Shown here one piece after another: positions 3,731 through 56,796 of a stretch of DNA of 64,000 nt (its first letter is position 1; each line of letters opens with the position of its first letter). Source of the DNA: an uncultured Rhodospirillaceae bacterium (GTDB lineage Bacteria > Pseudomonadota > Alphaproteobacteria > UBA6615); contig CAZHBA010000104.1 of the NCBI GenBank assembly GCA_964530225.1, forward strand, positions 15,178 through 79,177. Reading direction: 5' to 3'. The translations under genes were made by a program, and so were the position numbers. The notes below the pieces were generated by a model. It did not search any database. It saw only the letters and a program-made list of their open reading frames with translations, and was not told the origin of the DNA.

Positions 3731-3785
3731 ATCGCTGCAGGCCGGGGAACGCGACCAACATAATTCAGCTCAAGAGTGAAATACC

Positions 3786-4991
3786 GTGCACACATTATCA
3801 CCGGGAAAAGATTATGACGTGACCATCGTCGGGGCCGGACCCGCTGGTTTGAGTTTTGCCCGATCACTGGCGACGACAGGATTGCAGATTGCGGTCGTTG
3901 AACAGTTGCCGCAGAATGTTCTTGCAGATCCGCCGGTAGACGGTCGCGAGATCGCGCTTACCCACCTGTCCGTTGAGATATTGAAGAAACTGGGCGCTTG
4001 GCCGCGCATCCCTGTCGATGCAGTTTCCAAAATCAGGGAAGCCAGGGTGGTGAACGGTAGGTCTTCTTATTTCCTGCACTTCGAGCCTGGCGGTAACCGC
4101 AAAGAAGCGCTGGGCTACATAGTACCGAACCATCTCATTCGGAAGGCCGTCTACGAGACGCTGGATGGTTTCACTAACGTGAGCCTTATGACCGCTGTCG
4201 AGGTACAGTCGGTCAGCACTGACCGCCACGGTGCCTCTGCACACCTATCGGATGGCCAAACACTACGAAGCGCATTGCTGGTCGCCGCCGATAGCCGGTT
4301 TTCCAAGACACGCCGAGATTTAGGGATCTCCGCAGACATGCACGATTTTGGTAGAACGGCAGTCGTGTGCCGGATGGCGCACGATAAACCACACACCGAT
4401 ATCGCATATGAGTGCTTCCACTATGCCCAAACATTGGCCGTGCTACCGCTTGTCGGGGACCTCTCGTCCATCGTGATCACACTATCTACGGATATGGCCG
4501 ATATTGTGATGAACATGGGCGAAGATGCCTTCAACAGCGACGTTGAACAACGTTTCGAAAGCCGTCTAGGTAGAATGAAATTGGTCGGTAGCCGCTATGC
4601 TTATCCTCTGGTGGCAGTGCATGCGAACAGATTTACCGCCCATCGATTTGCGCTAATCGGCGATGCTGCCGTAGGCATGCATCCGGTCACGGCACATGGA
4701 TTCAATCTCGGTCTGCGGGGACAGGACACCCTGGCTAACGAAATCGCCACAACTCTGAGCAGACATGGCGACATTGCCTCACCAACAGTGTTGCAGCGTT
4801 ACCATGCCAAACATCGGCGTGTGACCAGACCCCTATATCTCGCAACCAACAGCATCGTGCAGCTCTACACGCGCGATGATTTGCCGGCCCGGATCGTAAG
4901 GGGCGCGGTGCTGAGACTGGGCAATCGTATACGGCCAGTAAAACACGTAATCGTAGAGCAGCTGATGGAAACCAGGGCGCTACCGAATTGA
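3786..4991 (+). CDS. FAD-dependent monooxygenase, UbiH/UbiF/COQ6 family
   Basis: GTG start. N-terminal dinucleotide-binding fingerprint DVTIVGAGPAGLSFARSL. Internal GD motif FALIGDAAVGMHPVTAHGFNLGLRG, typical of ubiquinone-pathway-type flavin hydroxylases. 401 aa. Confidence 0.75.
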   Translation: MHTLSPGKDYDVTIVGAGPAGLSFARSLATTGLQIAVVEQLPQNVLADPPVDGREIALTHLSVEILKKLGAWPRIPVDAVSKIREARVVNGRSSYFLHFEPGGNRKEALGYIVPNHLIRKAVYETLDGFTNVSLMTAVEVQSVSTDRHGASAHLSDGQTLRSALLVAADSRFSKTRRDLGISADMHDFGRTAVVCRMAHDKPHTDIAYECFHYAQTLAVLPLVGDLSSIVITLSTDMADIVMNMGEDAFNSDVEQRFESRLGRMKLVGSRYAYPLVAVHANRFTAHRFALIGDAAVGMHPVTAHGFNLGLRGQDTLANEIATTLSRHGDIASPTVLQRYHAKHRRVTRPLYLATNSIVQLYTRDDLPARIVRGAVLRLGNRIRPVKHVIVEQLMETRALPN

Positions 4992-5099
4992 TCCAGGTCA
5001 AAATATTGCGAATCTAGGTGTCGCAATCTTTCTGCCTAAACTGACAGCATGTCCGCTGGAGACCGTGACGCGACTCTTTGGGCTTTGGCTGTTGGAACA

Positions 5100-5438
5100 A
5101 TGCGGAGGAAGCTAACATTGCCCAAGGTCACGTTCGTCACGGCTGACGGTGCGCGCAACGAGGTCGTAGCCAAGAACGGGGAGACCCTGCTCAAAGCAGC
5201 CCACCACGCAAAAGTGAATGTCGAGGGCGCATGTGACGGCTCGCTGGCGTGCTCGACCTGCCACGTGCTCGTCGACGACACCCATTTCGGCACCTTGCCC
5301 GAACTACGGGAGGACGAAGCCGACATGCTTGACCTCGCCTTCGGTCGCGGTCCAACCTCGCGGCTGGCCTGCCAGATCGTGATCACCGACAAACTCGACG
5401 GCATGGCCGCCGTCGTTCCGAAGCCGTTCGATATCTGA
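5100..5438 (+). CDS. 2Fe-2S ferredoxin, adrenodoxin/FdxB type
   Basis: Cys ligand pattern CDGSLACSTCH…(35 aa)…C (CxxxxxCxxC…C) and PKVTFV…NGETLL. ATG 5100 (MRRKLTLPKVTFV) preferred over the upstream ATG 5049, giving the usual ~112 aa. Confidence 0.75.
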   Translation: MRRKLTLPKVTFVTADGARNEVVAKNGETLLKAAHHAKVNVEGACDGSLACSTCHVLVDDTHFGTLPELREDEADMLDLAFGRGPTSRLACQIVITDKLDGMAAVVPKPFDI

Positions 5439-5477
5439 CTGCCGCATCGGAGAGCAGACAAGAGGGAGGAAAAGAAC

Positions 5478-6314
5478 ATGCCACATTGGACCGACTTCGG
5501 CGTCTGGCAGGCAGAAGATATCCATTGGGACCGCTTCGATTCGTCGCGCGTCGACCTCGACCTCGTCAAGTTGGTCAAGGCGGCGAGCCTGGTCGAGCAC
5601 AACGCGCCGGTCTACGCCAAATACATGTGCAACGTATTCCACGATGATCCGGGTTTTGCCAAACTGGCCAGGGACTGGGCGGACGAGGAGGTCAAACACG
5701 GCAAGACGCTGGCCCGTTATGCCAAGCTCGCAGATCCCGAATTCGACTTCGACACTGCCTTCAAACGCTATACCGACGGTTTTCAGGTGCCGGTCGAAGT
5801 AAGCGAATCGGTGCGCGGTTCGCTGACTGGTGAAATCCTGGCGCGTTGCGTCGTGGAGACCGGCACCAGTTCCCACTACACGGCGATCCGACGGGTAACC
5901 AACGAGCCGGTCCTCGAGGAGCTATGCCGCAACCTGGCGGCCGACGAATTGCGCCACTACAAGACCTTCTGGGAGTTCTCCAAACTGCTCCGCGAGAAGG
6001 AGGGCATCGGCCTCGTGAAGCGCGCCCAGGTTGTCATTAACCGGGTTGCCGAAGCCCAGGACGAGGAGCTCGCTTACGCCTTCCATACGGCCAACGAGAA
6101 GTCCGGCGGCTTCAATCACAAACGCTCCAACGAGGCCTATGCGGGGCACCTCTACAAGCTCTATCCGCCCTATCTGGTGGAGCGCTTCGTCGCCATGCTG
6201 TTGAACGTGATCGGCCTCAAGCCACACGGTTGGCTGAGCCAGCGAATCAGCCGGTTAGTGTACCGAAAAATGCAAAAGCGCGCGCGCCGTTTCGCCGCTG
6301 GACAACCAGCGTAG
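5478..6314 (+). CDS. Ferritin-like diiron-carboxylate protein (acyl-ACP-desaturase-like / diiron oxygenase-like)
   Basis: 278 aa with two E-x-x-H motifs ~95 aa apart (WADEEVKHGKT and AADELRHYKTF), as in diiron oxygenases and soluble desaturases. A ferredoxin gene is immediately upstream, and AGGGAGGAAAAG precedes the ATG. Confidence 0.55.
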   Translation: MPHWTDFGVWQAEDIHWDRFDSSRVDLDLVKLVKAASLVEHNAPVYAKYMCNVFHDDPGFAKLARDWADEEVKHGKTLARYAKLADPEFDFDTAFKRYTDGFQVPVEVSESVRGSLTGEILARCVVETGTSSHYTAIRRVTNEPVLEELCRNLAADELRHYKTFWEFSKLLREKEGIGLVKRAQVVINRVAEAQDEELAYAFHTANEKSGGFNHKRSNEAYAGHLYKLYPPYLVERFVAMLLNVIGLKPHGWLSQRISRLVYRKMQKRARRFAAGQPA

Positions 6315-6393
6315 CCGGTTCGGACGAGGTTACTTATAAGCCGGCTATCACCAACTATGTGACATCGGACTGGCGATCGATATTTGCACAAAA

Positions 6394-6429
6394 ATGGTGC
6401 CGCCTGTTGGACTCGAACCTACGATCCTG
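6394..6429 (-). repeat. Partial copy of the tRNA-Thr 3' end (T-arm + acceptor 3' strand); imperfect direct repeat of 9957-9992 and candidate att site
   Basis: ATGGTGCCGCCTGTTGGACTCGAACC is 26/26 identical to 9957-9982, extending to 34/36 with 2 mismatches. It lacks the 5' half of a tRNA, so it cannot fold into a cloverleaf. Confidence 0.7.
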
Positions 6430-6879
6430 TTCCTACCAAAAATCACATCCGGACATAGGCATGATGTAATCCGCCGAGTTCCGGCGACGATGGTGTGAAT
6501 GTAAAGATTTTCATTGCCACCAGCCACATGCTGTCGCCGTACTTCACGCTTTCCTGCTCGATCGCCACCCGATCCAACTTATCGGGTGACGCCATTGCAA
6601 TCCATTTGTTGGTCGATTCGACCAAAAGATCGAAAAAACCAAAAAAACAGTCACGTTCTGTGGCCAATCCTTCTGACATGTCAGTTCCCGCCCATTTTAT
6701 AATTCCCGTGAATTATTTTCTTAATGCAGCGGGTCGTTCGCGTTCAGTACCAACTTCGATTTTGATGTCAGGCGCAGCAGCGATGGTTTCTTGGATGTGG
6801 CACCAATTAACGACGCTCCGAGCAATACGTCGCATGTTTTCAGTAATCGCATCGCTTAACGGCCGCGTTACCAGCGGTA

Positions 6880-7680
6880 TTATCTACCAACAAAGTTGGG
6901 TCTTCGCTTTTCGATGAAGGCCTGTTGAGCCTCTTTCGCATCTTCCGTTCGGGAGATTGCCGCTGTCATATCCTGCTCGTAGCGGTAACCATCGCGCAGT
7001 GTCATGTCCTCGATAGCGTTGAGCGTTTGCTTAGCCAACTTTACGGCCAACGGGCTCTTGGACGCAATGCTCAACGCAAGCTCCATTGCGTTCGCCATCA
7101 ACCTGTCGGGTACGACGCAGTCCTCGATTATCCCCAGACGATACAACTCGCGGGCCGGCACACGGTAGCCCGTCAGCACCATCCGGCGGAGTAGCGAATG
7201 CGAGAACAGACGTTTTGCGTGGCTTGCACCGCCCATGAGGCCAACATCGATCTCCGGTAAACCCAAGCTTGCAGACTCCGAAGCAACAATGACGTCGCAC
7301 GAAGCCACTATTGCCAGTCCCGCGCCCAATGCGTGGCCGTTGACCGCGGCTACGACGGGCTTGGTACATTCGCGGATCGCGTGAAAGCATTCCCGGGTAC
7401 GCCGCGAGTGGGCGGGCAAATCGCCCGGACCCTTGATAACGTCTTTGCGACCCTTAAGATCGGCACCAGCGCAGAACACCTTGCCCGCGCCAGTCAACAC
7501 GACCGAGCGCATCGCCTCGGTCTCGGAGATCACGTCGAGTGTCCGCGTGAGTTCTTCTGATAATGTCCGACTGAGTGCATTCACCGGCGGGAAATTCATC
7601 TCCAGCAGTGCAATGCCCTCCTCGCTGACCGTCACGTTTAGTTGGGTCAAGTTCTTCAATTGGCACATGGACAGAGACAT
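6880..7680 (-). CDS. Enoyl-CoA hydratase/isomerase (crotonase) family protein
   Basis: 266 aa with the crotonase signature (VVLTGAGKVFCAGADLKG … ALGAGLAIVASCDVIVASE). Oxyanion-hole region conserved. Confidence 0.75.
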   Translation of the reverse strand: MSLSMCQLKNLTQLNVTVSEEGIALLEMNFPPVNALSRTLSEELTRTLDVISETEAMRSVVLTGAGKVFCAGADLKGRKDVIKGPGDLPAHSRRTRECFHAIRECTKPVVAAVNGHALGAGLAIVASCDVIVASESASLGLPEIDVGLMGGASHAKRLFSHSLLRRMVLTGYRVPARELYRLGIIEDCVVPDRLMANAMELALSIASKSPLAVKLAKQTLNAIEDMTLRDGYRYEQDMTAAISRTEDAKEAQQAFIEKRRPNFVGR

Positions 7681-7708
7681 CGATTCTACTCCTTAGTAAA
7701 AATACGAT

Positions 7709-8572
7709 TCATACAACGCCGCACTCACGCAGCTGCGCCACTTCGCTGTTCCCGGTGCCGAATTCGGCAAGCACTTCACCGGTATGCTGACTCAATTCGG
7801 GTAGAGGTCGACTGGCGTTACCGTCGCTTTCGCCAAATCGGAATGGGCTCACTACCAGGGGAACTGAGCCGGCGGCCAGAAACTCGTAATTGCGCACCAT
7901 CTCTCGTTGACGCACCTGTGGATCGTTGAGCGCTTTCGGTATCGTATTAATCGGACCGGCCGGAACACCCGCTTCGATCAAGCCTACCAAACACTCAGAA
8001 CGATTTCTGGTTAGTAAGGAGTGCTCAAGTATCGACTGAGGTACCTCCTGATTCCGTACGCGCGCTCCATTTGTACGAAATCGCTCGTCTGACGACAGAT
8101 AGGGCATCTCAGGCACCTTACACAAGCTTGCGAATTGCTGATCGTTGCCGACTATGAGGATAATATCGCCACCACGGCACGAGTATACTTTCTGTGGTTG
8201 AATGTTCGGGTGCGCGTTACCGGTGCGTCGTGGTGCTTTGCCGGTTAACAGCAAATTCATCGCCTGGTTGGAGAGTAAGCTGACGCCCACGTCGAACATC
8301 GCCATGTCAATATACTTGCCTTTGCCAGTGACTACTCGTGCGGCAAGAGCGGCGACAACGGCTGTGGTCGCGTATATACCAGTGACCAGATCGACAATGG
8401 GTATCCCCACCTTCATCGGACCAGCGCTAGGCTGGTCATCTCGTACGCCCGTCACACTCATGAGCCCGCACATCGCTTGAGTTAGGAAGTCGTAGGCGGG
8501 CTGCAGCGCTCGCGGGCCTACCAGGACACGACTGAGATCAAGAACCCTAATGTGCGAAAGTGGCCCTGCCAT
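7709..8572 (-). CDS. Family III (CaiB/BaiF) CoA-transferase, apparently carrying an in-frame internal deletion of ~100-130 aa (possible pseudogene)
   Basis: From ATG 8572 (MAGPLSHIRVLDLSRVLVGPRA) the family N-terminal motif RVLDLSRVLAGPYA runs directly into LQPAYDFLTQAMCGLMSVTG. That sequence (GYDxxxQAxGGLMSxTG) normally lies ~130 residues further in. The rest of the protein is family-like. The upstream in-frame extension to 8818 has no family resemblance. Confidence 0.5.
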   Translation of the reverse strand: MAGPLSHIRVLDLSRVLVGPRALQPAYDFLTQAMCGLMSVTGVRDDQPSAGPMKVGIPIVDLVTGIYATTAVVAALAARVVTGKGKYIDMAMFDVGVSLLSNQAMNLLLTGKAPRRTGNAHPNIQPQKVYSCRGGDIILIVGNDQQFASLCKVPEMPYLSSDERFRTNGARVRNQEVPQSILEHSLLTRNRSECLVGLIEAGVPAGPINTIPKALNDPQVRQREMVRNYEFLAAGSVPLVVSPFRFGESDGNASRPLPELSQHTGEVLAEFGTGNSEVAQLRECGVV

Positions 8573-8855
8573 TCCCAACGCTCCCTCGGGCTGGATACCA
8601 TCCAGCTTGTTTTTCTTTATCGTCCGGCAGTGGGTGAGAATATGTGCAGCAAACGGATTTGCTCCGTTAAGCGCACAGCAAATAATGTGGTCACACAGCA
8701 TCATGATTCTCACTGTCACATCGCCAAACAGCCTCCGTCGACCGACGGCACGGCGCCCGTCACATAACTCAACAGGTACGAGTACCGCAGAACGACCGAA
8801 CCCGCCGGCGTGAGCCAAACTGTAGCCCCGCTATTCGATCTCGAATCACAAACCT

Positions 8856-9776
8856 TCAGCTGCGCTCCACCAGATGCTGGCGTACAAACTTAGCATTGCG
8901 CTTAGCAGCTTGGGTCTTGAAATCGTCAGATGAATACAGCCCGATATGAGTTACCTTCTTCATCACCGAAAGTTCCTTGTTGACAGACGGTATTCGATTA
9001 AATGCTTCAACTTGCAGATCCCAAGGAGTGTGTTCGTCGCCTTCTACAATGAGCATTTGGGTCGGTGTGTTGAGGTTCCGTTTGAGATGGCTCATTACCG
9101 AATACTGCATCAGATTTTCGGCCGATTCGACCGTACTCATCCGATTGTAATTAGGAGCGTAAGACTCGCGCGCCGACGAGAAAAATTTCATCGACGGCTG
9201 GAATGGCCAGACACAAAGCTCTTTGTCGGGGTCTTCTACATTGTGCGGAATATGGCCTTCCGGCTCGCCCCGGGAACGGCGTTCCCGGTCTTCCATGATT
9301 GCCGCTTCCAGCTTCGCGAAGCGGCCCTTTCCGTAACCATGGACAAGCCGCATCGATTCATAGCCATCAATAACCGGTATCACCGACACCGCACAACGCA
9401 CGCGCGGGTCTATGCCTGCGAGAATGAGCGCGTGACCGCCCGCAAAAGATATGCCCCAAACGCCAAGACGCTCAGCGTCCACCTCCGGCAGGGTGGCTGC
9501 AAAGCTGAGTGCGTTGCGGTAGTCTTCGATCTGCATCCAAGGGTCAATATGCTGACGCTGAACGCCGTCACTATCTCCGAAGCCCCTATAATCGAAACGC
9601 AGCGTCGCACAACCCACGGCAGCCAACTCAGCCGCGTAGGTAGGCATCACGATCTCTTTGACGTAGCACCAGCCCCCCGCAACCACCAGAAGCGGGTGAG
9701 GCCCGTCGCCCTCTGGCATATTTAGAACACCAACTAACTTGATGCCCTTGCTCATAAATTCTACGTTCTTTTCCAT
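8856..9776 (-). CDS. Alpha/beta-hydrolase fold protein
   Basis: 306 aa with the nucleophile-elbow GxSxG context (LGVWGISFAGGHA), a downstream Asp/His, and [10 protein letters not shown] near the N-terminus. Confidence 0.65.
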   Translation of the reverse strand: MEKNVEFMSKGIKLVGVLNMPEGDGPHPLLVVAGGWCYVKEIVMPTYAAELAAVGCATLRFDYRGFGDSDGVQRQHIDPWMQIEDYRNALSFAATLPEVDAERLGVWGISFAGGHALILAGIDPRVRCAVSVIPVIDGYESMRLVHGYGKGRFAKLEAAIMEDRERRSRGEPEGHIPHNVEDPDKELCVWPFQPSMKFFSSARESYAPNYNRMSTVESAENLMQYSVMSHLKRNLNTPTQMLIVEGDEHTPWDLQVEAFNRIPSVNKELSVMKKVTHIGLYSSDDFKTQAAKRNAKFVRQHLVERS

Positions 9777-9957
9777 TGCAGTCTCCAGCCTGAGCGCGTT
9801 AGTGGCTCTATATTATCCTTCGACAATTAGGCATTCTGGATTTCGAGTCGCCAATAAATCACGGTTCAGAGATCATCGGTAAGCCCTTAAAAAGCCGTAC
9901 TTATGTTACCCCAAAAGAAAAAAGAGCCAGCAGGTTTTCGCTAACTCTTTGAAATTA

Positions 9958-10033
9958 TGGTGCCGCCTGTTGGACTCGAACCAACGACCCCCGCATTACG
10001 AATGCGATGCTCTACCAACTGAGCTAAGGCGGC
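9958..10033 (-). tRNA. tRNA-Thr (anticodon CGU)
   Basis: Reverse complement GCCGCCTTAGCTCAGTTGGTAGAGCATCGCATTCGTAATGCGGGGGTCGTTGGTTCGAGTCCAACAGGCGGCACCA folds as a cloverleaf. It has a 7-bp acceptor stem, D-arm GCTC/GAGC, anticodon loop TTCGTAA (anticodon CGT), T-loop TTCGAGT and a 3' CCA. Confidence 0.85.
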
Positions 10034-10100: not shown

Positions 10101-11155
10101 TTAAGAGGCTTGCGCGAATTGGCCCGCTGCGGCGCCGGCGATTTTGCCGAACACTGCGCCCGAGGTCAGACCGGTGCCGCCGGGATAATTGAAATAGAAG
10201 ATGCCGCCAACCAGCTCCCCGGCCGCATAAAGGCCGGGGATCGGCCGTGAGCCCAGGTCGAGCACGTTAGCCGCGTGGTCGATGCGCAGGCCGCCGAAGG
10301 TGAAGGTGAGCCCACAGATCACCGCGTAGGCCTCAAACGGCGACCCGTCGATGGTATTGGCCCAGTTGGTCTTGTCGACTGCCAGGCCGGTGGTGCCCCG
10401 CCCGTCCTTGACGTTGGGATCGAACGGGACAGCGGTCTGCACCGCCGTGTTGTAGACCTTGATTTCGGCCAGCGCGGCGGCGGTGTCAACACCGTCGAGC
10501 TTAGCGATCAATTCCTCCAACGTGTCGGCGCTCACCTTGGTCACCCGGCGAATGCGGTACTCGTCGCGCAACAGGTGGCTTACCTTGGCGTCGAAAATTT
10601 TCCAGGCGAACTGTCCCGGTTGCTCGAGGATCACCTTTCCGTATTTAGCGTAGGTGTAGTTGCGAAAGTCGGCCCCCTCGTCGACGAAGCGCCGGCCGGT
10701 GGAGTTGACCATGATGCCCCAGGGATAGGAGTGCTTCTGGAAATTATCGCCGACCGTGAGGTCGCCGAACTCGGGCGCATTGCGGTCCCAACCAACGGCG
10801 TGGCGCCCGACCAGTTGCCGTAGGGCTGGGCGCCGATATCGAGCGCCATGCGGATGCCGTCGCCCATGTTGAAGCGCGAGCCGCGCACCTTGGCGAGGTC
10901 CCAGCCAGGACCAAGATAGCGCGTGCGCCACTCAGTGTTGGCTTCGAAACCGCTGCTAGCTAGCACCACCGCCTTGGCACCGATGGTGATGGTGCTATCC
11001 AGTTGGCGCACGTGGCCGCCGTGCACCCCGGCGGCGTCGTGGACCAGGGAAACCGCACGGCTGTCGTAGAGTATGTCGATACCGCACGTCCGCGCCGACG
11101 CGATCAGGGCGTCGACTACAGGACATAAGGACTTGAAGATGTTGAAACGATACAC
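10101..11155 (-). pseudogene. FAD-dependent oxidoreductase (TcuA / fumarate-reductase-flavoprotein-like) remnant, frameshifted and 5'-truncated
   Basis: Two overlapping minus ORFs (10631-11155 and 10101-10931) carry consecutive parts of one flavoprotein (…ASSGFEANTEWRTRYLGPGWD…QPYGNWSG | HAVGWDRNAPEFGDLTVGDNFQKHSYPWGIMVN…GLYAAGE). They are joined by a -1 frameshift near 10805-10815. The N-terminal FAD-binding GxGxxG region is missing. The ORF stops being protein-like exactly at the AT-rich boundary at ~11156. Confidence 0.6.
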
Positions 11156-11409
11156 CTATCTCAAGGCTGAAGATCTGGCTCTTAAACTGGGGTGATAATA
11201 ATATACACCACTATCATTACTGATGAGTTTTTAGCATTTAATTAAACACCCGCTAGAATAGCCTGTATGGACTCAGGAGACTCATATCTGATGGGTATGG
11301 TGTGGGTTATGGTGTGTCCTGTTTGAGCCTCAGTGACTCCGTATGGGTCTCTATGACCCCTTTAGCTATGGTATTAACAATCGCCATGAAATGTGTCAGA
11401 CTTTTTGTT

Positions 11410-11784
11410 ATGAAAAAACTGACCACCACACTCTGCCTGACTGTTGCCCTGCTATTTGGATGTACGGGGGTGTGTATGAGCGCCGATCCAGCAAAAGGTT
11501 TGCTTGATTTAAAGTCTAGTTTGGTTGCTTATTCTTGTGATGATTATAAGGGTCCCATACCCCAAAATGCCAATCCCAACAATCGGGGCCCCTATTATTT
11601 TGAAATTGATTTTGATCAAAAAAAGGTCAGTGAAAAATCCGTATTAGATGGTTATTGGAGCCATTGGTATCAAGCCGCTATTACCAACGAAAAAATCGTC
11701 TGGTCTAATCACCACAAATGTAAAATTGCTTTCGATAAAGAAAATGAAGAAATAGAAATTACGTTTCCCGATAAGGTCGACTAA
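11410..11784 (+). CDS. Hypothetical lipoprotein (orphan, in AT-rich insert)
   Basis: ATG 11410 gives MKKLTTTLCLTVALLFGCTG, a signal peptide with lipobox-like LFGC. 124 aa in a region of ~40% GC. No family recognised. Confidence 0.45.
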   Translation: MKKLTTTLCLTVALLFGCTGVCMSADPAKGLLDLKSSLVAYSCDDYKGPIPQNANPNNRGPYYFEIDFDQKKVSEKSVLDGYWSHWYQAAITNEKIVWSNHHKCKIAFDKENEEIEITFPDKVD

Positions 11785-12642
11785 GGAATTTGGTCAGGAT
11801 GCTACAAGGTTGAGCCTCGAAAAAACTCCAAATGATTTGGGTCCATCAACCTCAGTTAGTAAGGACGATTCTTTTAATGAAGCAAAGATGACGACCTCTG
11901 ATGAGATCATCATCATTGGGTCTCCATACATAAAATATAAATAGAGAAGCGTGATATATCATTATACGACTGTTTTTTTAGGACGATAGACCCACAGTTC
12001 TAGCTGAGTAACTCCAGAAGCTATTATTACATTATTTATGCAGGGTGTATTTCTTTGGGTGGTCTTCCTTTCTTGCTCCAATTTTGCGCCAATGAAACCC
12101 GGATGGGACCCATAATAATTTTGTAGGATTCACATAAGTTCTTATTAATGCTACAATATTTTTCAGGATTAAAAGCTTGAGATGTCTACCCCCGCATTAC
12201 GCGTGTATTTACCGTTGACATCCTCCAGCTAATCGTAGGTTCGCCAAAAGTTGTTGGCCAAAAAGCGGGCATTGTTGGTGCAACCAGCACCATCAGGCTC
12301 GGCGCAAAGGCGGGCTCCACCAGCAACAGGTCCGCGGCCATCACCGTCGTTCGTGGTGACTGAAATCGAGGCCGTTGACTTCGTCGCCGGCATCGATATC
12401 GATGGCGATACCAGCATCGTCTAAAACCAGTTTTGTCAGTTTTGTTTCAGGGTCGCGCACCATCTCCGCAACGGGCGAATAGGCTGACGGGAAAAATAGC
12501 CGGTTTTTGTCGTGCAGGGTTGATTCGGCCATGTGCGAACAACGCTGTTGTAGCGGCGCGCCGATGGCGAGCCTTTCGGTGCCGCTCATTCAATACCCAT
12601 ATAATTAATGTAAGGTTAAAATGGACCGGAATGGCCTAGAAT

Positions 12643-50746: not shown

Positions 50747-51658
50747 TCAGCCCAACGCACAATCAACTAGCCTGTTGTAAACGCCATCCATTTTTTGCTT
50801 TAGGGATGGATCGGCCTTCCCCCAATCAAGCGTGCGATCTTTTTTCGGCTCCCGAATATCGCCCAGAAGGGAATCGGTTTTGGGCCCGAAATTCATACCA
50901 AAAAAATCGCAAATTTTACCGAGATCTGATTTAGCGTCCTGAACAAAGCGATCATAGTCAATTATCAAGTTGAATGTGGCCGCGTCTACCTTGTCATATT
51001 GATGAATGTAAGCAAGGCAGCAACGGTCGATAGGCGTCATAGTTTTCCAGTCGGATTCATATTTCGGCTCCAACCAGAAAGGAAAGTTGAATTTCCTGTC
51101 AGACTTTAGGGGCCATTTTAGCGAGGGGCCAGTGAGCGTGCTGTCGTCAAACCAGCCTTTTATCAAGATCGAGGCCACAACGCTCTCGGGCTGTCGAACA
51201 GTTGCCAGCATTTTCATTTGCGGATAATAGCCGGATAGAGTTCCTGCAAGATGAGTCATTTCAGGAATCTTGAAGGCAATTCGTGACTGTAACGAAGCCT
51301 CCACCAAGTCCCGATGTTTATGAGGTGTACGTTGACGTGCTTCGACGTCCGAAGGCTCTTTCATCGTCAAAATGTGAGTCAAATCCGCTTTATTGAGATT
51401 GAGATTTCTCCCTGCGAGGGCGGGAAGCAAGCAGTCCTCGTACAACGCCGCTTCGAACAGCAATTGCCATTGTTCGCGGGGAAGATCTTCGATCAGGGGA
51501 AGCAATACGTAACACAAAGGGGGTTCGATAAAGATTTCCGTACCGGCGAATGAACCCACAAGCCGGGCCATCATGGTCGTCCCGGTTCTCATCGCACCTG
51601 TCAAAAAAATGGCCTGCGACACCGCTGTGCTCGCTTCGGGAAGAAGGCGAAGTGTCAT
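50747..51658 (-). CDS. Sulfotransferase-family protein
   Basis: 5'-PSB-like PAPS-binding loop IFLTGAMRTGTTMM near the N-terminus. Later …RQPESVVASI… region (3'-PB-like). 303 aa; lower GC than the flanks. Confidence 0.6.
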   Translation of the reverse strand: MTLRLLPEASTAVSQAIFLTGAMRTGTTMMARLVGSFAGTEIFIEPPLCYVLLPLIEDLPREQWQLLFEAALYEDCLLPALAGRNLNLNKADLTHILTMKEPSDVEARQRTPHKHRDLVEASLQSRIAFKIPEMTHLAGTLSGYYPQMKMLATVRQPESVVASILIKGWFDDSTLTGPSLKWPLKSDRKFNFPFWLEPKYESDWKTMTPIDRCCLAYIHQYDKVDAATFNLIIDYDRFVQDAKSDLGKICDFFGMNFGPKTDSLLGDIREPKKDRTLDWGKADPSLKQKMDGVYNRLVDCALG

Positions 51659-51688
51659 GAAATCCGGTGTTCTTCGGTATGGCTAATT

Positions 51689-52876
51689 TCAAACATCACT
51701 GAGTGGCGTATCCTGGAAAAATTTTTGACGTGGCAAATCCCACATCTTGGATTGGGAAAGAATGTCTGTAAACCGCCGGCCGGAATCACCGTCACCAAAT
51801 TCGATGGCGGCGTCGACGCGGTCAGGCAGGGACTGGATGGCCACAAGAATTTCTTCCTTTTTTGCCTCTACGTGAGCAATTGAAGGGCAGAAACTACGAT
51901 TTCTCTGTCGGGTTCCTATGTTGATGCTGGGTACACCAAACACCGGAGCTTCGCGGACACCAGAACTGGAATTTCCAATAATGAAGCGTGCATTTTTCAT
52001 CAGGGTGAGAAAATATTTGAAACGGATAGAGGGATAAAGAACGACATTATCTTTTGCCGCAAATCGCTCGAGTGTTTCAACGAGGGTTTCTGCACCGATA
52101 TCATTGTTAGGCCGTATGGCAATAACATTGCCGCCATGTTCGTCTAGTGCCGATAGGACCTCCTCGAACTGCTGCCCAATATTTCCGGTCTCGGTCGTAA
52201 CCGGATGGAACAACAGAATAGAATAATTCGTGAAGGACAAATCGTAGTGTTGTTGAACCTCCGAAAGCGAGGGCAGGTTTTCACTTTTCATCAGATCGAC
52301 TTCGGGAGAACCAATCACGAAAATGGTTTGTTCTGCTTCACCCAGCTGCAAAATTCTCGTCCGGGAATCCCGATTGGCTACAAAATGAATGTGGGAAAAT
52401 TTGGTCACCGCATGTCGAATTGACTCGTCGATGGTTCCGGAGACTTCGCCACCTTCGATATGCGCCACCCGCGTATTATTCATAGCGCCGGCAATAGCTC
52501 CCGCCAGGGTTTCGACCCGGTCTCCATGAACTACAAGCATGTCCGGTTTCCGCTCATTCAGGTAATGGCTCATGGGGACAATGGTGTTGGCCAGAACGAC
52601 ATCCATTTTTGACGACGTCGATGATTCCTGATTGAAAATCGGGAAGACCACCTTGTGCCCCGATTTATGAATTTCATTTATAGTATAACCGTGGCTCTCC
52701 AGCATGTGCATACCGGTGGCGATAATCTCGATTTCAAAGCTTTCAGTCGCCTCAAGGCTCTCAATCAAGGTTTGCATCTTGCCGTAGTCGGCACGGGTTC
52801 CCGTAAGGAACGCCACTCTCTTTACACGGTCTGGCTGCTCACTAGTCACTGACACAATTCCAGGATAATTGTTCAT
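51689..52876 (-). CDS. neuC: UDP-N-acetylglucosamine 2-epimerase (hydrolysing), NeuC/LegG family (start uncertain: ATG 52942/52876 or GTG 52816)
   Basis: …VAFLTGTRADYGKM…, …VHGDRVETLAGAIAGAMNNTRVAHIEGGEVSG… and …HPVTTE…, the hallmark NeuC (epimerase_2, hydrolysing) motifs. Confidence 0.75.
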   Translation of the reverse strand: MNNYPGIVSVTSEQPDRVKRVAFLTGTRADYGKMQTLIESLEATESFEIEIIATGMHMLESHGYTINEIHKSGHKVVFPIFNQESSTSSKMDVVLANTIVPMSHYLNERKPDMLVVHGDRVETLAGAIAGAMNNTRVAHIEGGEVSGTIDESIRHAVTKFSHIHFVANRDSRTRILQLGEAEQTIFVIGSPEVDLMKSENLPSLSEVQQHYDLSFTNYSILLFHPVTTETGNIGQQFEEVLSALDEHGGNVIAIRPNNDIGAETLVETLERFAAKDNVVLYPSIRFKYFLTLMKNARFIIGNSSSGVREAPVFGVPSINIGTRQRNRSFCPSIAHVEAKKEEILVAIQSLPDRVDAAIEFGDGDSGRRFTDILSQSKMWDLPRQKFFQDTPLSDV

Positions 52877-53891
52877 GTTCTTCAAGATCGCGCGTGGCGG
52901 TCTTTCCCACAACGGCCTCGTATTCATTTGCCAGAATTTCACCTGTCCCTGGACGCTTTACCCAGACGTTTTCACGCGTGAATTTATCGCCTTTGGTAAT
53001 TGCCCTTGTTGCGACGACACAGGCATAAGCGAACGCAATCGTCGGAGCTTCGTCTTCGAGAATATCCTTGGAGCCACCCCGCGCTTCAAATATCGCCCGG
53101 CTCCCCTTGACCAGGTCTGCAAGCTCAGGAGGCGACATTGAAATCGAAATGTCGGGGCCCGGCCATGACTTGTCTGAAGTGAAATGACGCTCAACAGCAA
53201 CGGCCCCCAAAGCCACGGCGGCCAGCGCAGCATAATTATCCAGAGTATGATCGCTTAACCCAATCATTTCAGTTTGAAACCGGTTCTTCATATCCTGCAT
53301 GGCGCCCAGCCTGACAGCCGAATAGGGCGTTGGATAAATGGACGTACAATGCAAAAGTAGAAGCGGTATATCGGCGGCGCGGATTATATCCACCGAGCGT
53401 TCAATGGAAGCGAGGTCGTTCATGCCGGTACTGAGAATAACCGGCCTTCCGAATGACGCTATATGTTCGACAAGGGGATAGTTATTGCATTCTCCAGAAC
53501 CGATCTTATACGCCCCGACATTCATTCCCCTGAGTTCATCGGCAGCCGCGCGGGAAAATGGCGTAGACAAATAGACCATACCCTTTTCTTCGGTATATCG
53601 CTTGAGCAAAATATCTTCGTCCAGGGTTAATGCGCAGCGCCCCATGATGTCCCAGATGCTTTCCTTGGCATTGCCTGGAATGACCTCGTTGGGGATCATT
53701 TCATCTTCAATAACATGGCGTTGAAATTTGACGCATTCACAGCCTGTAGCCGCCGCGTCATCGATCATCTGGTGAGCTTTCTCTATCGAACCCTCGTGAT
53801 TGATGCCGATCTCGGCAATGATCAACGGCAGCTGATTCGACCCAACCTCACGGTCGCCGAGAAAAAAGGGTTTATCTGTATTTACAGTCAT
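52842..53891 (-). CDS. neuB: NeuB-family N-acylneuraminate/legionaminate synthase
   Basis: From ATG 53891 (MTVNTDKPFFLGDREVGSNQLPLIIAEIGINHEGS). …VILSTGMND…, …LLHCTSIYPTP…, …GLSDHTLDN… and a C-terminal SAF domain. ATGA overlap with neuA upstream. Confidence 0.8.
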   Translation of the reverse strand: MTVNTDKPFFLGDREVGSNQLPLIIAEIGINHEGSIEKAHQMIDDAAATGCECVKFQRHVIEDEMIPNEVIPGNAKESIWDIMGRCALTLDEDILLKRYTEEKGMVYLSTPFSRAAADELRGMNVGAYKIGSGECNNYPLVEHIASFGRPVILSTGMNDLASIERSVDIIRAADIPLLLLHCTSIYPTPYSAVRLGAMQDMKNRFQTEMIGLSDHTLDNYAALAAVALGAVAVERHFTSDKSWPGPDISISMSPPELADLVKGSRAIFEARGGSKDILEDEAPTIAFAYACVVATRAITKGDKFTRENVWVKRPGTGEILANEYEAVVGKTATRDLEEHEQLSWNCVSD

Positions 53892-54628
53892 GGGTTCTTG
53901 TCCAGAAACGGAAGTTTTACGTATCCCCCGATCAGCAAGAATTCTCCCAGAGGAAATTCTAGCGGGCCATCGGCATCGAATCCCCAAATGGTGTCAACTA
54001 GAATTGGCAGGGACGGGTTTGCAAATACGAAGTCCTGTTCGAGGCAAGGTAGGGCGCGCAATACGATTACGTTTCCAAAAAGAAAGTGCTTTTGCTTTTT
54101 CTGTTTATTGTAGTTTTCGCGGATCAACTCCGGTTCCGAAAAACGCACATACCCTTCTTCTATCACCCGTTGGTTCATTGCGTGGAGTTGATGCGGGCAA
54201 TCGGTCACAGTCTGCGACGACCCCGCCTGAGAGTCTTTCTTCAAGACCGCAATGCAGTCGGTTATATGCTGCGGCAGTATGAACGGCGACGTCGGCTGAA
54301 GAAAGGCGATGTATTCCGGGATCACCCCCTCGCGGTCCTGTACCGTTTCCAGAAAATCGCGAAACACATCCATGACAGGGGTCATGTCACCGCCCAAGGC
54401 GTCCGGACGACCAATTGTTTCGATTTGCAGTTTCTCGCAATTTTCTCTGATTTCCCTGGAGTCGGTGCTACAAATTATTCGTGTGACGTCAGAACATGCC
54501 TTCGCTGCCAGTACACAGTAATCCATCAACGGCCGGCCAGCGAAAGGATGGATGTTTTTCAACGGGATGCTCTTGGAGCCGCCACGGGCGGGGACAAACC
54601 CCCAACACTCGCCTTTTTTGACATTCAT
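53888..54628 (-). CDS. neuA: N-acylneuraminate cytidylyltransferase (CMP-nonulosonic acid synthetase)
   Basis: GFVPARGGSKSIPLKN… and …IAFLQPTSPF… (CTP_transf_3). 246 aa. Confidence 0.75.
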   Translation of the reverse strand: MNVKKGECWGFVPARGGSKSIPLKNIHPFAGRPLMDYCVLAAKACSDVTRIICSTDSREIRENCEKLQIETIGRPDALGGDMTPVMDVFRDFLETVQDREGVIPEYIAFLQPTSPFILPQHITDCIAVLKKDSQAGSSQTVTDCPHQLHAMNQRVIEEGYVRFSEPELIRENYNKQKKQKHFLFGNVIVLRALPCLEQDFVFANPSLPILVDTIWGFDADGPLEFPLGEFLLIGGYVKLPFLDKNP

Positions 54629-54668
54629 AAGATCGCGCCCGCTTTAACTGAAAAAATTCGTCTGAGCA

Positions 54669-56033
54669 TCATGGTCTTGCTTCCTGAACAAGATGCTCAA
54701 TCCGGTCACAATAGGTACCGGTTGCTGAACTGGTAATACTGGAAACGTATTTTTCGAAAATCGCTCGTCTTTGCAACCCAACTTCATCAGGCACGACAGG
54801 GTTCCTCAAACAATCAAGATAAAGATTTTTCAGCGCGACCCTGTCTTCCGCGATATCGAAAAGATCAAACTCATCCTCCAGCATAATATTGCCTTTATAT
54901 GCCGGCGCCCTCATCTCTTTCGTAAACGGGATAATGACGCGTTTGTTCGCAATGGCGGCCTCAAGGAGCACGGTTGAGCCATAGCCACAAACAACTGTGG
55001 ACTGAAGAATAAGTCTTTGTGAATCGGCATCGGGTTCGATCGTCAAGTTTGGCAACTCGTCAAGATCAAAATTGGCTAAGGTCAGGGTCTCGACAATTCT
55101 AGTTTTCCAAGACCCTCCCCATTTTGGCTTAATAACAAACCGCACCTCCGGATTTTCAGAAGCCAGCTCGGCAACGACCACGTGACACATGTCGAATGTC
55201 TCAAAAAAGCCGATCTCCCTTGATGCGGGAAACGGTTGGGGACCACCAAAAAGAAGACCAAGCCCAACACCGGGAGCGAAAGAAAAAAACGTCACCAGGG
55301 GCGGGACTTCCCGATCAACGATGTGGTTTTCGATTGAGTCGATGTAGTCATCCATCCTCATGCAACCGAGGGCCTCGACATTTGCGGGAGCTACGTATCC
55401 GGATGCGCAGAATGCCCGCTGAACCAATGGATTATGGACAATGAGGTGCGTCCCGTGAAATTTGCCAAGCGAGGAGGACCAATCCACAAATCTCTTCTGC
55501 AATGCACTGCTAACGACCAAGTTTTCCTTATGCAATGTCACCGCCGGTGTGCCAATCTCATGAGAAATTGCGGCCCAATCGTAATCCTGCGGATAATCAA
55601 CGCAGGCATTAACAACGCAATCAACACGTAACGCCTTAAACAGATTCGGCAGGAAATTTCGGAGGAAATTTCGGTACTGCTTCTGGCCATGTTCAAAGCG
55701 TTCGTCTTCATAAGGACGAAATACCGTCCTGCGTTCGACACCCCTTGGATAGAACTGACTGTACATAATACCCAGCCATTTGAATCTAAGGGCCAGGACC
55801 CTGAATCTGCCAGTACTAGACAGCAGTTCCAGGTCTTGTCTGAAGCGGTCGCTAGTCAGAGCTAGAATTGTTATCTGTGGGTCGCCAGGAGACTTAATCT
55901 CTTCAATAATTCGGCGGAAAAGCAAAACCACTGGCCAGGAAACGCCAAGGCGTACCAACACACGGAATAGCAGCTTCAGCGGCAAACGGAAAAAACCAAC
56001 GTCGGTCGCTAAAGAAATCAGTCGGTCTCGCAT
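54669..56033 (-). CDS. Membrane-anchored TagF/Capsule_synth-like GT-B protein (paralog A); candidate nonulosonic-acid/polymer transferase
   Basis: N-terminal TM helix (VLVRLGVSWPVVLLF). C-terminal …RFVIKPKWGG… / …LILQSTVVCGYGSTVLLEAAIANKRVIIP… resembles the KPHP…TDYSS motifs of the TagF/KpsS-type fold. Shares ILAL(T/S)…DLE(L/A)L, GCMRMD and RA(I/V)FEKYV blocks with the 56848-58197 gene. Confidence 0.45.
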   Translation of the reverse strand: MRDRLISLATDVGFFRLPLKLLFRVLVRLGVSWPVVLLFRRIIEEIKSPGDPQITILALTSDRFRQDLELLSSTGRFRVLALRFKWLGIMYSQFYPRGVERRTVFRPYEDERFEHGQKQYRNFLRNFLPNLFKALRVDCVVNACVDYPQDYDWAAISHEIGTPAVTLHKENLVVSSALQKRFVDWSSSLGKFHGTHLIVHNPLVQRAFCASGYVAPANVEALGCMRMDDYIDSIENHIVDREVPPLVTFFSFAPGVGLGLLFGGPQPFPASREIGFFETFDMCHVVVAELASENPEVRFVIKPKWGGSWKTRIVETLTLANFDLDELPNLTIEPDADSQRLILQSTVVCGYGSTVLLEAAIANKRVIIPFTKEMRAPAYKGNIMLEDEFDLFDIAEDRVALKNLYLDCLRNPVVPDEVGLQRRAIFEKYVSSITSSATGTYCDRIEHLVQEARP

Positions 56034-56061
56034 AACGTCCAGTTTTGTAGATCACTCAAGA

Positions 56062-56796
56062 TTAGTGGCCCCGCTCGACAATATCTGACAGTTTCCACAA
56101 CCCTAGACACTTTCCTTTGTGCCGTTCGTGGCTATTGTCCAGCTCTTCATCGATAATTTTTAGCGGCTCCGGGAAATTGAATGGTGGCAAAGTCATGTTC
56201 AATGGCCGCCACATGCCCGTAACAATGTCTTCATTCTTCTCGATCGGTGGGAATGTTGTTGCCAGCAAATAGGTGGAATCACTGCAGACAAAATTTTTAA
56301 TTGCCGCCTTGATGTCCCTGTTCGACAAATGAACCAGTGCATCCCTACACAGCAGGAGGTCTCCGGTTGGCGGCACTGTTTGGCAGAAGTCCATTACCAG
56401 AAATTCTCGATTATTGTTCCCGAACTTCTCGCGATTAGCTTCAATCAGGGGCTCAACAATATCGCATCCAATATAGCGACAATCCTGGATATCAATATCC
56501 TGCATCCAGAAAAAGTCGCCACAGGGCACATCGAGAAGGGTTTTAATATCGAGCTCTGCCAAGATTGCAGGCAAAGTTTCCCGTATAGCTCTTGGCCCAT
56601 TCAGACCAGACCCAGCACCAGAGCGTGAATGCGTGTTGCTCCATCGATTGGTGTGAAAATACTCCGAGAAAATTACCTGACGATCCATTGACGCCAGGCG
56701 ACGCCTTCTGAGCTTCCTCAGAAGGCGAGCCTTCAACATTGCAAGCCGGGAAATTGGTGGAAACGCCCAAACTAATTTCTGTCGGATAGTTGTCAT
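56062..56796 (-). CDS. Class I SAM-dependent methyltransferase
   Basis: Motif I LLDVPCGDFFWM and downstream acidic motif II (…YIGCDIVE…). 244 aa. Confidence 0.6.
   Translation of the reverse strand: MTTIRQKLVWAFPPISRLAMLKARLLRKLRRRRLASMDRQVIFSEYFHTNRWSNTHSRSGAGSGLNGPRAIRETLPAILAELDIKTLLDVPCGDFFWMQDIDIQDCRYIGCDIVEPLIEANREKFGNNNREFLVMDFCQTVPPTGDLLLCRDALVHLSNRDIKAAIKNFVCSDSTYLLATTFPPIEKNEDIVTGMWRPLNMTLPPFNFPEPLKIIDEELDNSHERHKGKCLGLWKLSDIVERGH

Follow-up and report, generated by a model that had tools for sequence, protein, structure and literature searches.

Islands and prophages that integrate at tRNA genes are flanked by a full tRNA on one side and by a partial copy of its 3′ end on the other, the attL and attR sites; PMC9897764 cites the surveys of Reiter 1989 and Williams 2002 on this. 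Integration of an element is known to leave such partial tRNA copies behind (PMC9897764), and two sublocations of integration within the tRNA, the T loop and the anticodon loop, have been described (bioRxiv 10.1101/2020.11.02.365908). The name CIME (cis-mobilizable element) was coined for derivatives of ICEs from Firmicutes, and for some of them mobilisation has been demonstrated. The locus considered here lies in a 64,000-nucleotide stretch of DNA from an uncultured Rhodospirillaceae bacterium, which was analysed as a whole and is called the window below. Within it, an islet of about 3.5 kb is bracketed by an intact tRNA-Thr(CGU) gene and a displaced copy of the 3′ part of that gene. With a probability of roughly 60%, the islet is a degenerate, immobile remnant of an integrative element that inserted into the 3′ end of tRNA-Thr(CGU) and was later reshaped by deletions. 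The phenomenon itself is ordinary, a known type of tRNA integration scar.

The tRNA gene and its partial copy

The tRNA-Thr(CGU) named in the initial annotation was called by both ARAGORN and Rfam (RF00005, 71.4 bits) as an intact gene at 9958-10033 on the minus strand, where it would represent the target gene on the attL side. Repeat search and direct reading of the sequence place one copy of the repeat at 9957-9990 (minus strand), running from one base beyond the CCA end through the 3′ acceptor strand and the T arm into the variable loop. The other copy, at 6394-6427 on the same strand, is a displaced partial tRNA 3′ end resembling an attR scar. The two are direct repeats in the same orientation, identical at 32 of 34 positions and perfectly so over the first 26. 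The orientation and the 26 perfect positions had been reported correctly in the initial annotation, but its identity of 34/36 had not, the count over those 36 nt being 32. Position, direction and register of the repeat support the attL/attR-like geometry that it had proposed, and a tRNA island is arranged in this way, with an intact tRNA at one end and its 3′ part directly repeated at the other.

The 21-nt core of the repeat occurs exactly twice in the window (0 expected, 100 shuffles), and the core search found no second fragment or further att copy there. Sequence similarity by itself might be taken to indicate coincidence, or a working tRNA or tRNA-like RNA that had escaped recognition, a reading whose probability is negligible: no chance match is expected, and ARAGORN together with Rfam at E<=1 detects only the gene at 9958-10033, with no tRNA at 6394. 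The fragment at 6394-6427 also has a broken T stem, its 5′ strand reading GTAGG with loss of the pairing to CCAAC; it forms no cloverleaf, and the 77-nt span at 6394 folds worse than shuffled sequences (z +1.3). A second, intact tRNA overlooked at this position, which had been considered a danger to the original interpretation, is excluded by the same searches and folding. The repeat is real, and is neither a chance match nor a second tRNA.

Islet genes between decay and constraint

The bracketed DNA carries an alpha/beta hydrolase, a family-III CoA-transferase, a crotonase and the N-terminal third of a DinB-family gene, all on the minus strand. The first three had already been listed, and Pfam finds hydrolase, CoA_transf_3 and ECH_1 domains accordingly. 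Their best homologues (63-81% identity) belong to a chromosomal acyl-CoA catabolic cluster elsewhere (L018), composed of an ECH, a CoA-transferase, LysR, a double acyl-CoA dehydrogenase, a hydrolase and TctC, which is not linked to a tRNA. The hydrolase (8856-9776; Peptidase_S15/Hydrolase_4-like in Pfam, 306 aa) is intact, shares 81% amino acid identity with its counterpart in that cluster, and has no match above 49% identity among plasmids. Its dN/dS of 0.047, measured against a strain that is 96-97% identical (L010), denotes strong purifying selection. The crotonase (6880-7680, 266 aa) is a full-length enoyl-CoA hydratase/isomerase (ECH_1, 6.8e-54) with 74% amino acid identity to the ECH of the cluster, and is colinear with the CoA-transferase as it is there.

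The CoA-transferase (7709-8572, with CoA_transf_3 assigned to 7709-8818) is a pseudogene, which matches the CoA_transf_3 profile only at positions 126-366 and has a dN/dS of 0.54 relative to L010. The internal deletion suspected from the start was confirmed and mapped by BLASTP to the 405-aa homologue in the cluster, of which residues 1-20 and then 137-405 align while 21-136 are missing. About 116 codons have thus been lost in frame, with the junction near 8513-8518 between two Gly-Pro dipeptides. The DinB-family gene (6443-6679) is truncated as well, retaining only its N-terminal ~58 residues within a 78-aa ORF that matches nothing in PHROGs or Pfam. Its DinB link was revealed solely by an exhaustive phmmer search, which matched P0362, a 73-aa homologue on a 1.5-kb Logan contig, and P0364, a 177-aa protein that hits Pfam DinB at 3.7e-6. 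The fragment points toward the tRNA fragment and ends 14 nt before it. Because a truncated gene lies there, the present borders were shaped by deletion and are no pristine element end, so that the three genes are no more than possible cargo of the element behind the repeat. The term "decayed" fits the CoA-transferase deletion and the truncated DinB gene but not the hydrolase, constrained as it is. It is proposed that what has survived is part of an acyl-CoA catabolic cluster in rearranged form, with the hydrolase, and probably the crotonase, still in use; having stayed strongly constrained as the genes around it decayed, the hydrolase has probably been co-opted.

As initially stated, there is no integrase, and a Pfam search of all ORFs and of six-frame translations of 6428-6882 detected no excisionase or other mobility gene either, even as a remnant. 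The islet thus lacks the tyrosine or serine recombinase gene of an integrase-mediated tRNA island, whose customary place is beside the tRNA, and the 180-nt spacer beside the tRNA is too short for a recombinase gene. In IMG/VR, the att core has 0 matches. The pattern of tRNA end plus trailer has one (L028), which was rejected: it contains no tRNA, it is located among repeats between the genes of a phage, and by our own estimate such a count fits chance. The initial annotation had suggested comparing GC skew and codon usage with the core genes; base composition gave no foreign signal, as GC and GC3 of the three genes fall within the window range (z -0.9 to +0.6 versus 38 other window genes), so that the atypical composition of tRNA-integrated islands is lacking. 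The AT-rich stretch noted earlier does have a lower GC content, but only mildly so (0.48 at 6430-6879 versus 0.57 for the whole window).

These features bear on a different account, in which the scar is genuine but traces back to an older element, to a different one or to a tandem array. The 3.5 kb would not be its cargo and would have reached this place afterwards, through deletions, accretion or homologous replacement within a flexible region tied to the tRNA. This account is favoured by the deletion-made border, where a truncated gene adjoins the fragment on the side of the islet, by the host-like composition of the islet, and by the hydrolase, which is inverted relative to the CoA-transferase/ECH pair when compared with the L018 cluster. 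Moreover, tRNA-linked islands of marine Prochlorococcus hold scattered partial tRNAs and degenerate elements (bioRxiv 10.1101/2020.12.28.424599). This account is possible but doubtful, in that it requires more events than one insertion followed by deletions, and the window has neither a second fragment nor another att copy.

The locus in relatives and its flanks

tRNA-Thr(CGU) is held at the matching locus in six relatives (L011, L013, L023, L015, L016 and L024; HemY identity 77-85%), where the gene order is hemC-hemD-hemY...FAD oxidoreductase, then tRNA-Thr. The tRNA follows an FAD_binding_2 gene in the first three of these and a CTP-transferase gene or gene fragments in the last three. In the window, the FAD_binding_2 oxidoreductase on the 5′ side of the tRNA (10101-11155, minus strand; Pfam profile positions 144-410 in two frames) is a pseudogene, N-terminally truncated and frameshifted, with 84% amino acid identity to L011 and L013. 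In relatives, its orthologue is an intact 495-aa gene that stands before tRNA-Thr, and its counterpart in L010 is an intact 508-aa ORF.

The islet genes are absent at this locus in all six relatives, as expected of island content, and the DNA downstream of the tRNA differs in nearly all of them. It comprises a GST (L011, L016 and L023), another crotonase, an AlpA island or luciferase-like fragments, and never the 278-aa gene that flanks the islet in the window. The ECH after tRNA-Thr in L011 and L015 was considered as an orthologue of the islet crotonase and rejected (26-30% identity). In L013, an AlpA-type excisionase/regulator gene lies 283 nt past the tRNA, and beyond it come an IS110 fragment and metal-resistance genes; mobile DNA thus uses the tRNA-Thr site. 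Extending that island by 14 kb revealed metal-resistance genes, MucR and a kinase, and neither an integrase nor a tRNA repeat. A whole-tRNA search of metagenomes returned a single contig, that of L010, in which the tRNA is 100% identical. Since L010, 3-4% diverged, carries the same islet, the islet is not recent. Samples containing the population include JGI 3300035250 and ENA ERZ27286381. No empty site, as envisaged in the initial annotation, was found in any collection searched: the exact junction pattern (left flank, core, true tRNA) has 0 matches in metagenome contigs.

To the left of 6394 lies TTTTTGTGCAAATATCGAT, and then a gene for a 278-aa ferritin-like/diiron protein (5478-6314, plus strand; FA_desaturase_2-like in Pfam), which forms the outer flank. 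It is convergent with the fragment and a member of an old 205aa-224aa-Fer2-278aa linkage, whose synteny with L001-L004 stops at ~6328. A search of genome contigs with the 278-aa protein yielded four relatives, in which synteny stops at the gene end and no tRNA is present, so they are uninformative on the empty site. The outer flank of the fragment resembles the L011 trailer over 18 nt, in register, a similarity that is not significant.

On the other side, a non-coding arm adjoins the tRNA (9818-9956, minus strand), containing the motif TGGGGTAAC and a hairpin (9921-9950) that, together with a T run, resembles a terminator. This trailer of ~140 nt is homologous to the post-tRNA-Thr sequence beside the AlpA island of L013 (local alignment score 43, against 15.7 +/- 2.2 for shuffled sequences), the hairpin showing compensatory changes between the two, and its first ~25 nt are homologous to L024 as well. 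In L023, the trailer comes after a degenerate tRNA-like piece located upstream of the GST. L011 is without it despite 92% identity to L013 up to 5 nt beyond the tRNA. Common to L013, L024 and L023, the trailer could instead be the ancestral tRNA terminator; the tRNA-proximal side would in that case be native, which misfits a simple insertion.

An ancestral trailer is also part of a reading without site-specific integration, according to which the fragment derives from a second tRNA-Thr gene that was formerly complete, whether a tandem or segmental duplicate or an import, and was cut by the deletion that truncated the DinB gene. The 5′ limit of the fragment indeed coincides with a deletion endpoint, the anticodon-loop positions match at 5 of 7 on reading the sequence, and the trailer motif is common to four relatives. 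The identity nevertheless has its 3′ limit exactly at CCA+1, which fits an att core, unlike a duplicated gene with its flank, and it does not extend past tRNA position 44. A further tRNA-like match, 6863-6891 versus 9991-10019 (72%), was rejected as chance, since it runs into conserved codons of the crotonase and a stretch of 8 kb is expected to yield matches of such quality. None of the six relatives has two tRNA-Thr(CGU) copies at the locus. A once complete second tRNA is accordingly an unlikely source of the fragment.

The flanks further favour the doubtful but possible account in which the 3.5 kb is not the cargo of the element that left the scar. Measured against L011, the variable segment spans 6.2 kb (3731-9957) and has the fragment in its middle, and gene loss or replacement has occurred repeatedly on both sides of the tRNA, as seen for maf, a 259-aa gene, FAD_binding_2 and the AT-rich 11117-12201. 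In this uncultured marine alphaproteobacterial lineage, the DNA that follows tRNA-Thr(CGU) is a hot spot where genes are gained and lost.

A probable integration remnant and its known counterparts

Under the preferred explanation, a remnant of one integrative element, a Campbell-type insertion, most likely by a tyrosine recombinase acting site-specifically, would have targeted the 3′ end of tRNA-Thr(CGU), with the crossover inside the 26-nt perfect block between the T loop and the CCA, thereby creating the repeat. The incoming DNA would have rebuilt the tRNA and supplied the sequence just downstream, so that the tRNA-proximal 140 nt, terminator hairpin included, would be derived from the element, with which the three genes presumably arrived. 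The original tRNA 3′ end would have been displaced by 3.56 kb, surviving at 6394-6427 beside the older chromosomal block of the 278-aa gene. Deletions may then have removed the integration and excision genes and much else, one of them cutting the DinB-family gene at the fragment and another taking 116 codons from the CoA-transferase.

The old, decayed integration of the initial annotation is upheld by the repeat geometry, the CoA-transferase deletion, the lack of an integrase and the absence of the content in six relatives, and is weakened by the constrained hydrolase, the lack of an empty site and the host-like composition. The last two also count against the remnant reading, along with the absence of any mobility gene or intact model element and the fact that the 278-aa gene is never the neighbour of the tRNA in relatives. 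A further and very improbable idea is that the islet is one of a family of cassettes, flanked by att sites but devoid of an integrase, that share the ~140-nt arm (terminator hairpin plus TGGGGTAAC, found also beside the AlpA gene of L013) and would still be moved in cis or trans by an integrase encoded elsewhere, with tRNA-Thr(CGU) as a site of cassette exchange in these marine alphaproteobacteria. In annotation, 6394-6427 should be marked as an att-type tRNA fragment and not as a gene, and the CoA-transferase, DinB-like and FAD-oxidoreductase ORFs as pseudogenes; beyond that, the finding matters little.

Like tRNA-linked islands, the islet has a direct 3′-end repeat downstream of an intact tRNA, with identity running from inside the tRNA to its 3′ end, and its DNA is missing in relatives, where the same tRNA is occupied by other DNA. 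Unlike them, it has no integrase or excisionase, bears a truncated gene at one border, shows no compositional signal, and measures 3.5 kb against the 9-120 kb of the examples in PMC9897764. It resembles a CIME in being att-like-flanked, devoid of recombination and transfer genes, and probably derived by deletion from a larger element. It differs in that the attR arm beside the core is replaced by the truncated DinB gene and there is no known partner element that encodes a matching integrase. The att sites retain the 26-nt perfect core with two mismatches flanking it, and mobilisation looks unlikely. Compared with tycheposons, the host is alphaproteobacterial, no tycheposon hallmark genes are seen and there is a single partial tRNA; like tycheposon-type islands of marine Prochlorococcus (bioRxiv 10.1101/2020.12.28.424599), it is a variable region from a marine setting that is anchored at a tRNA and bears signs of recurrent integration.

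The tRNA-Thr(CGU) 3' end and its displaced copy

The 3.5-kb islet between tRNA-Thr(CGU) and a partial copy of its 3' end is probably, with a likelihood of roughly 0.6, the remnant of an integrative element that inserted at this tRNA and was later deleted down. The gene, at 9958-10033 on the minus strand, is the single tRNA in the 64-kb window (ARAGORN; confirmed by Rfam, 71.4 bits). A repeat search of the window recovers a direct repeat, 6394-6427 versus 9957-9990, with 32/34 identical positions, the first 26 of which are perfect on reading the sequence. The initial annotation had described a 36-nt repeat with 34 matches; the repeat and its 26 perfect positions are real, and the identity over the same 36 nt is 32/36. 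The window contains exactly two copies of a 21-nt repeat core (0 expected in 100 shuffles), and the repeat spans the tRNA variable loop, T arm, 3' acceptor strand, CCA, and one further base. Another weak tRNA-like match (72%) is rejected as chance level; it falls at 6863-6891, where it overlaps conserved codons of the crotonase.

A second intact tRNA at 6394, raised earlier as a possible objection, is not what the lower copy encodes: neither ARAGORN nor Rfam (E<=1) calls a tRNA at 6394-6427, the 5' strand of its T stem, GTAGG, is unable to pair with CCAAC, and the 77-nt span around it folds more poorly than shuffled sequence. That the fragment is instead a truncated second tRNA copy is unlikely, because repeat identity stops exactly at CCA+1 and none of six relatives examined at this locus has two copies. 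The T stem shows compensatory pair changes between lineages, being GTTGG/CCAAC in the window and in L010 (a metagenome contig of a close strain), GCTGG/CCAGC in the relatives' loci L013, L015, and L016, and GCAGG/CCTGC in L011, L023, and L024; outside the T stem, the tRNA is almost invariant.

Islet genes and their state

All genes between the repeats lie on the minus strand and read the same way as tRNA-Thr: an intact alpha/beta hydrolase (8856-9776, Pfam), a family-III CoA-transferase with an in-frame deletion (7709-8572, Pfam and homologue alignment), a full-length enoyl-CoA hydratase (crotonase; 6880-7680, Pfam), and a truncated 78-aa ORF (6443-6679). The internal deletion previously noticed in the CoA-transferase is borne out, as the gene covers Pfam profile positions 126-366 only and aligns with residues 1-20 and then 137-405 of a 405-aa homologue, ~116 codons having been lost in frame between two Gly-Pro dipeptides. 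Neither Pfam nor PHROG matches the 78-aa ORF; an exhaustive phmmer search identifies it with the N-terminal ~58 residues of a DinB-family protein 177 aa long. Just one other truncated DinB-like ORF was found, P0362 (73 aa, on a Logan contig). The 78-aa ORF is directed toward the tRNA fragment and ends 14 nt short of it; thus, the far border of the islet was set by a deletion and is no pristine element end. As initially reported, there is no integrase, nor any other mobility domain, in any ORF or in six-frame translations of 6428-6882.

The best homologues of the hydrolase, crotonase, and CoA-transferase (81%, 74%, and 63% identical, respectively) sit in a chromosomal cluster (ECH, CoA-transferase, LysR, double acyl-CoA dehydrogenase, hydrolase, TctC) with no tRNA nearby; the crotonase and CoA-transferase are colinear with this cluster, and the hydrolase is inverted relative to it. 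Comparison of islet with core composition, proposed earlier, gives no sign of foreign origin, since all three genes fall inside the window's range of GC and GC3. The same arrangement is present in 99.97-100% identical contigs from one NCBI MAG (GCA_035092285.1), two JGI metagenomes, and one ENA assembly. In L010, 96-97% identical, the tRNA, the hydrolase, and the CoA-transferase with its deletion are all present, so the islet is older than the window/L010 split. Between these two, dN/dS is 0.05 for the hydrolase, 0.54 for the CoA-transferase remnant, 0.09-0.24 for seven of eight neighbour genes (hemY to acs), and 0.68 for the eighth, a 2OG-FeII_Oxy_5 gene. These ratios show a hydrolase in use and a CoA-transferase that is drifting.

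The locus in relatives and turnover nearby

Six relatives were found via HemY homologues (HemY identity 77-85%), and all keep the order hemC, hemD, mitofilin-like, hemY, maf...(FAD_binding_2), tRNA-Thr(CGU), indicating that this tRNA, like its neighbour on the upstream side, is ancestral. The tRNA is followed by GST in L011, L016, and L023, by a crotonase other than the window's (26-30% identity between the two) in L015, by luciferase-like fragments in L024, and in L013 by an AlpA-type excisionase/regulator gene 283 nt away, with an IS110 fragment, a kinase, MucR, and metal-resistance genes. The islet genes occur at the locus in 0/6 relatives. The DNA after tRNA-Thr(CGU) is a hot spot. Identity between L011 and L013 is ~79% across the hem cluster and rises to 92% in a segment (L011 13545-16122, L013 13474-16052) with the 259-aa gene, FAD_binding_2, and tRNA-Thr; this high similarity ends 5 nt beyond the tRNA, which suggests a recently exchanged segment with its breakpoint at the tRNA end.

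On the outer side, 224-aa, 205-aa, and cupin genes are common to the window and L011 (69-85% identity), and the gene pair adjoining the fragment, Fer2 and a 278-aa ferritin-like/diiron protein gene (5478-6314), is linked to them in a Kiloniellaceae MAG that is more distantly related. The sequence left of the fragment therefore resembles older chromosomal DNA, which is what the outer arm of an attR should look like. The fragment's outer flank also resembles the L011 trailer over 18 nt in register, at a level that is not significant. An empty site, with tRNA-Thr followed directly by the sequence left of 6394 as sought by the initial annotation, was found neither by exact junction search of metagenome contigs nor at the relatives' loci, and genome contigs, metagenomes, IMG/VR, and 14 kb of the L013 island yielded no relative of the element that is intact and carries an integrase.

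Homology to the corresponding sequence of L013 extends over the ~140 nt that follow the tRNA (9818-9956; alignment score 43 versus 15.7 +/- 2.2 in shuffles). This arm holds a terminator-like hairpin with compensatory changes and carries the TGGGGTAAC motif, duplicated in L013; L024 has its first ~25 nt in common, and L023 has a similar hairpin downstream of a degenerate tRNA-like piece. L011, which has the GST arrangement as do L016 and L023, lacks the arm, although it matches L013 at 92% until 5 nt beyond the tRNA. We read the arm as element-derived, a putative P' side of attL; alternatively, it could be an ancestral terminator, which would complicate a simple insertion model. In L023 (19826-19935), the degenerate tRNA-like 3' piece (GGGGTCGTAGGTTCGCGTCCCCGTGCGCTCTCCA) lies 30 nt after tRNA-Thr(CGU), followed by the hairpin like the window/L013 trailer, GST, and a Mu-type transposase gene; this piece may represent a further integration scar at this hot spot, and it matters for deciding between an ancestral and an element-borne trailer.

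Upstream, a 1.1-kb AT-rich segment (11117-12201; GC 0.41, z -3.9) holding a lipoprotein-like 160-aa ORF (11302-11784; no Pfam or PHROG match) replaces the 5' ~510 bp of FAD_binding_2 and the region upstream, with no terminal inverted repeats seen. L010 has native sequence there, with an intact 508-aa FAD_binding_2 ORF, so this replacement/pseudogenisation is very recent and specific to the window's strain. In the relatives, hemY is followed by a flagellin-modification type cluster (maf/MptE-like, NeuB, epimerase, 259-aa protein, methyltransferase, CTP-transferase), of which 12184-12589 is a remnant comprising the first ~50 maf codons (12386-12589) and scraps of the 259-aa gene (12184-12379); the maf truncation is common to the window and L010. 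A low-GC block at 50747-56796 (GC 0.48-0.51, z about -2), encoding a sulfotransferase, UDP-GlcNAc 2-epimerase, NeuB, and methyltransferase, is a nonulosonic-acid or polysaccharide cluster and may be the functional counterpart of the one lost beside hemY. At 1255-1829, an Acetyltransf_18 homologue (40-56% identity) is broken across two frames and is probably another pseudogene in the neighbourhood; in L011 and L015, its counterpart adjoins the cupin gene.

Proposed integration and known remnants

In the integration model, the best-supported account, an element would have inserted into the 3' end of tRNA-Thr(CGU), the insertion would have duplicated that end, and deletions would then have removed the recombination genes and most of the content. 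The main rival takes the scar as real and holds that the three genes were perhaps not that element's cargo; it draws on the far border being a deletion endpoint, on the altered order of the genes, and on the turnover seen generally to either side of tRNA-Thr, and we regard it as less likely than the integration model. The original reading of an old, decayed, integrase-less integration is broadly right, with qualifications for the deletion border, the constrained hydrolase, and the host-like composition.

Such an islet is an ordinary phenomenon. It is recognised that integration pervasively gives rise to partial tRNA copies (PMC9897764), crossovers in the T loop or anticodon loop have been described (bioRxiv 10.1101/2020.11.02.365908), and the name CIMEs is used for att-flanked elements whose integrase is gone (PMC6323972). 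Marine tRNA-linked islands likewise contain degenerate remnants and scattered partial tRNAs (bioRxiv 10.1101/2020.12.28.424599).
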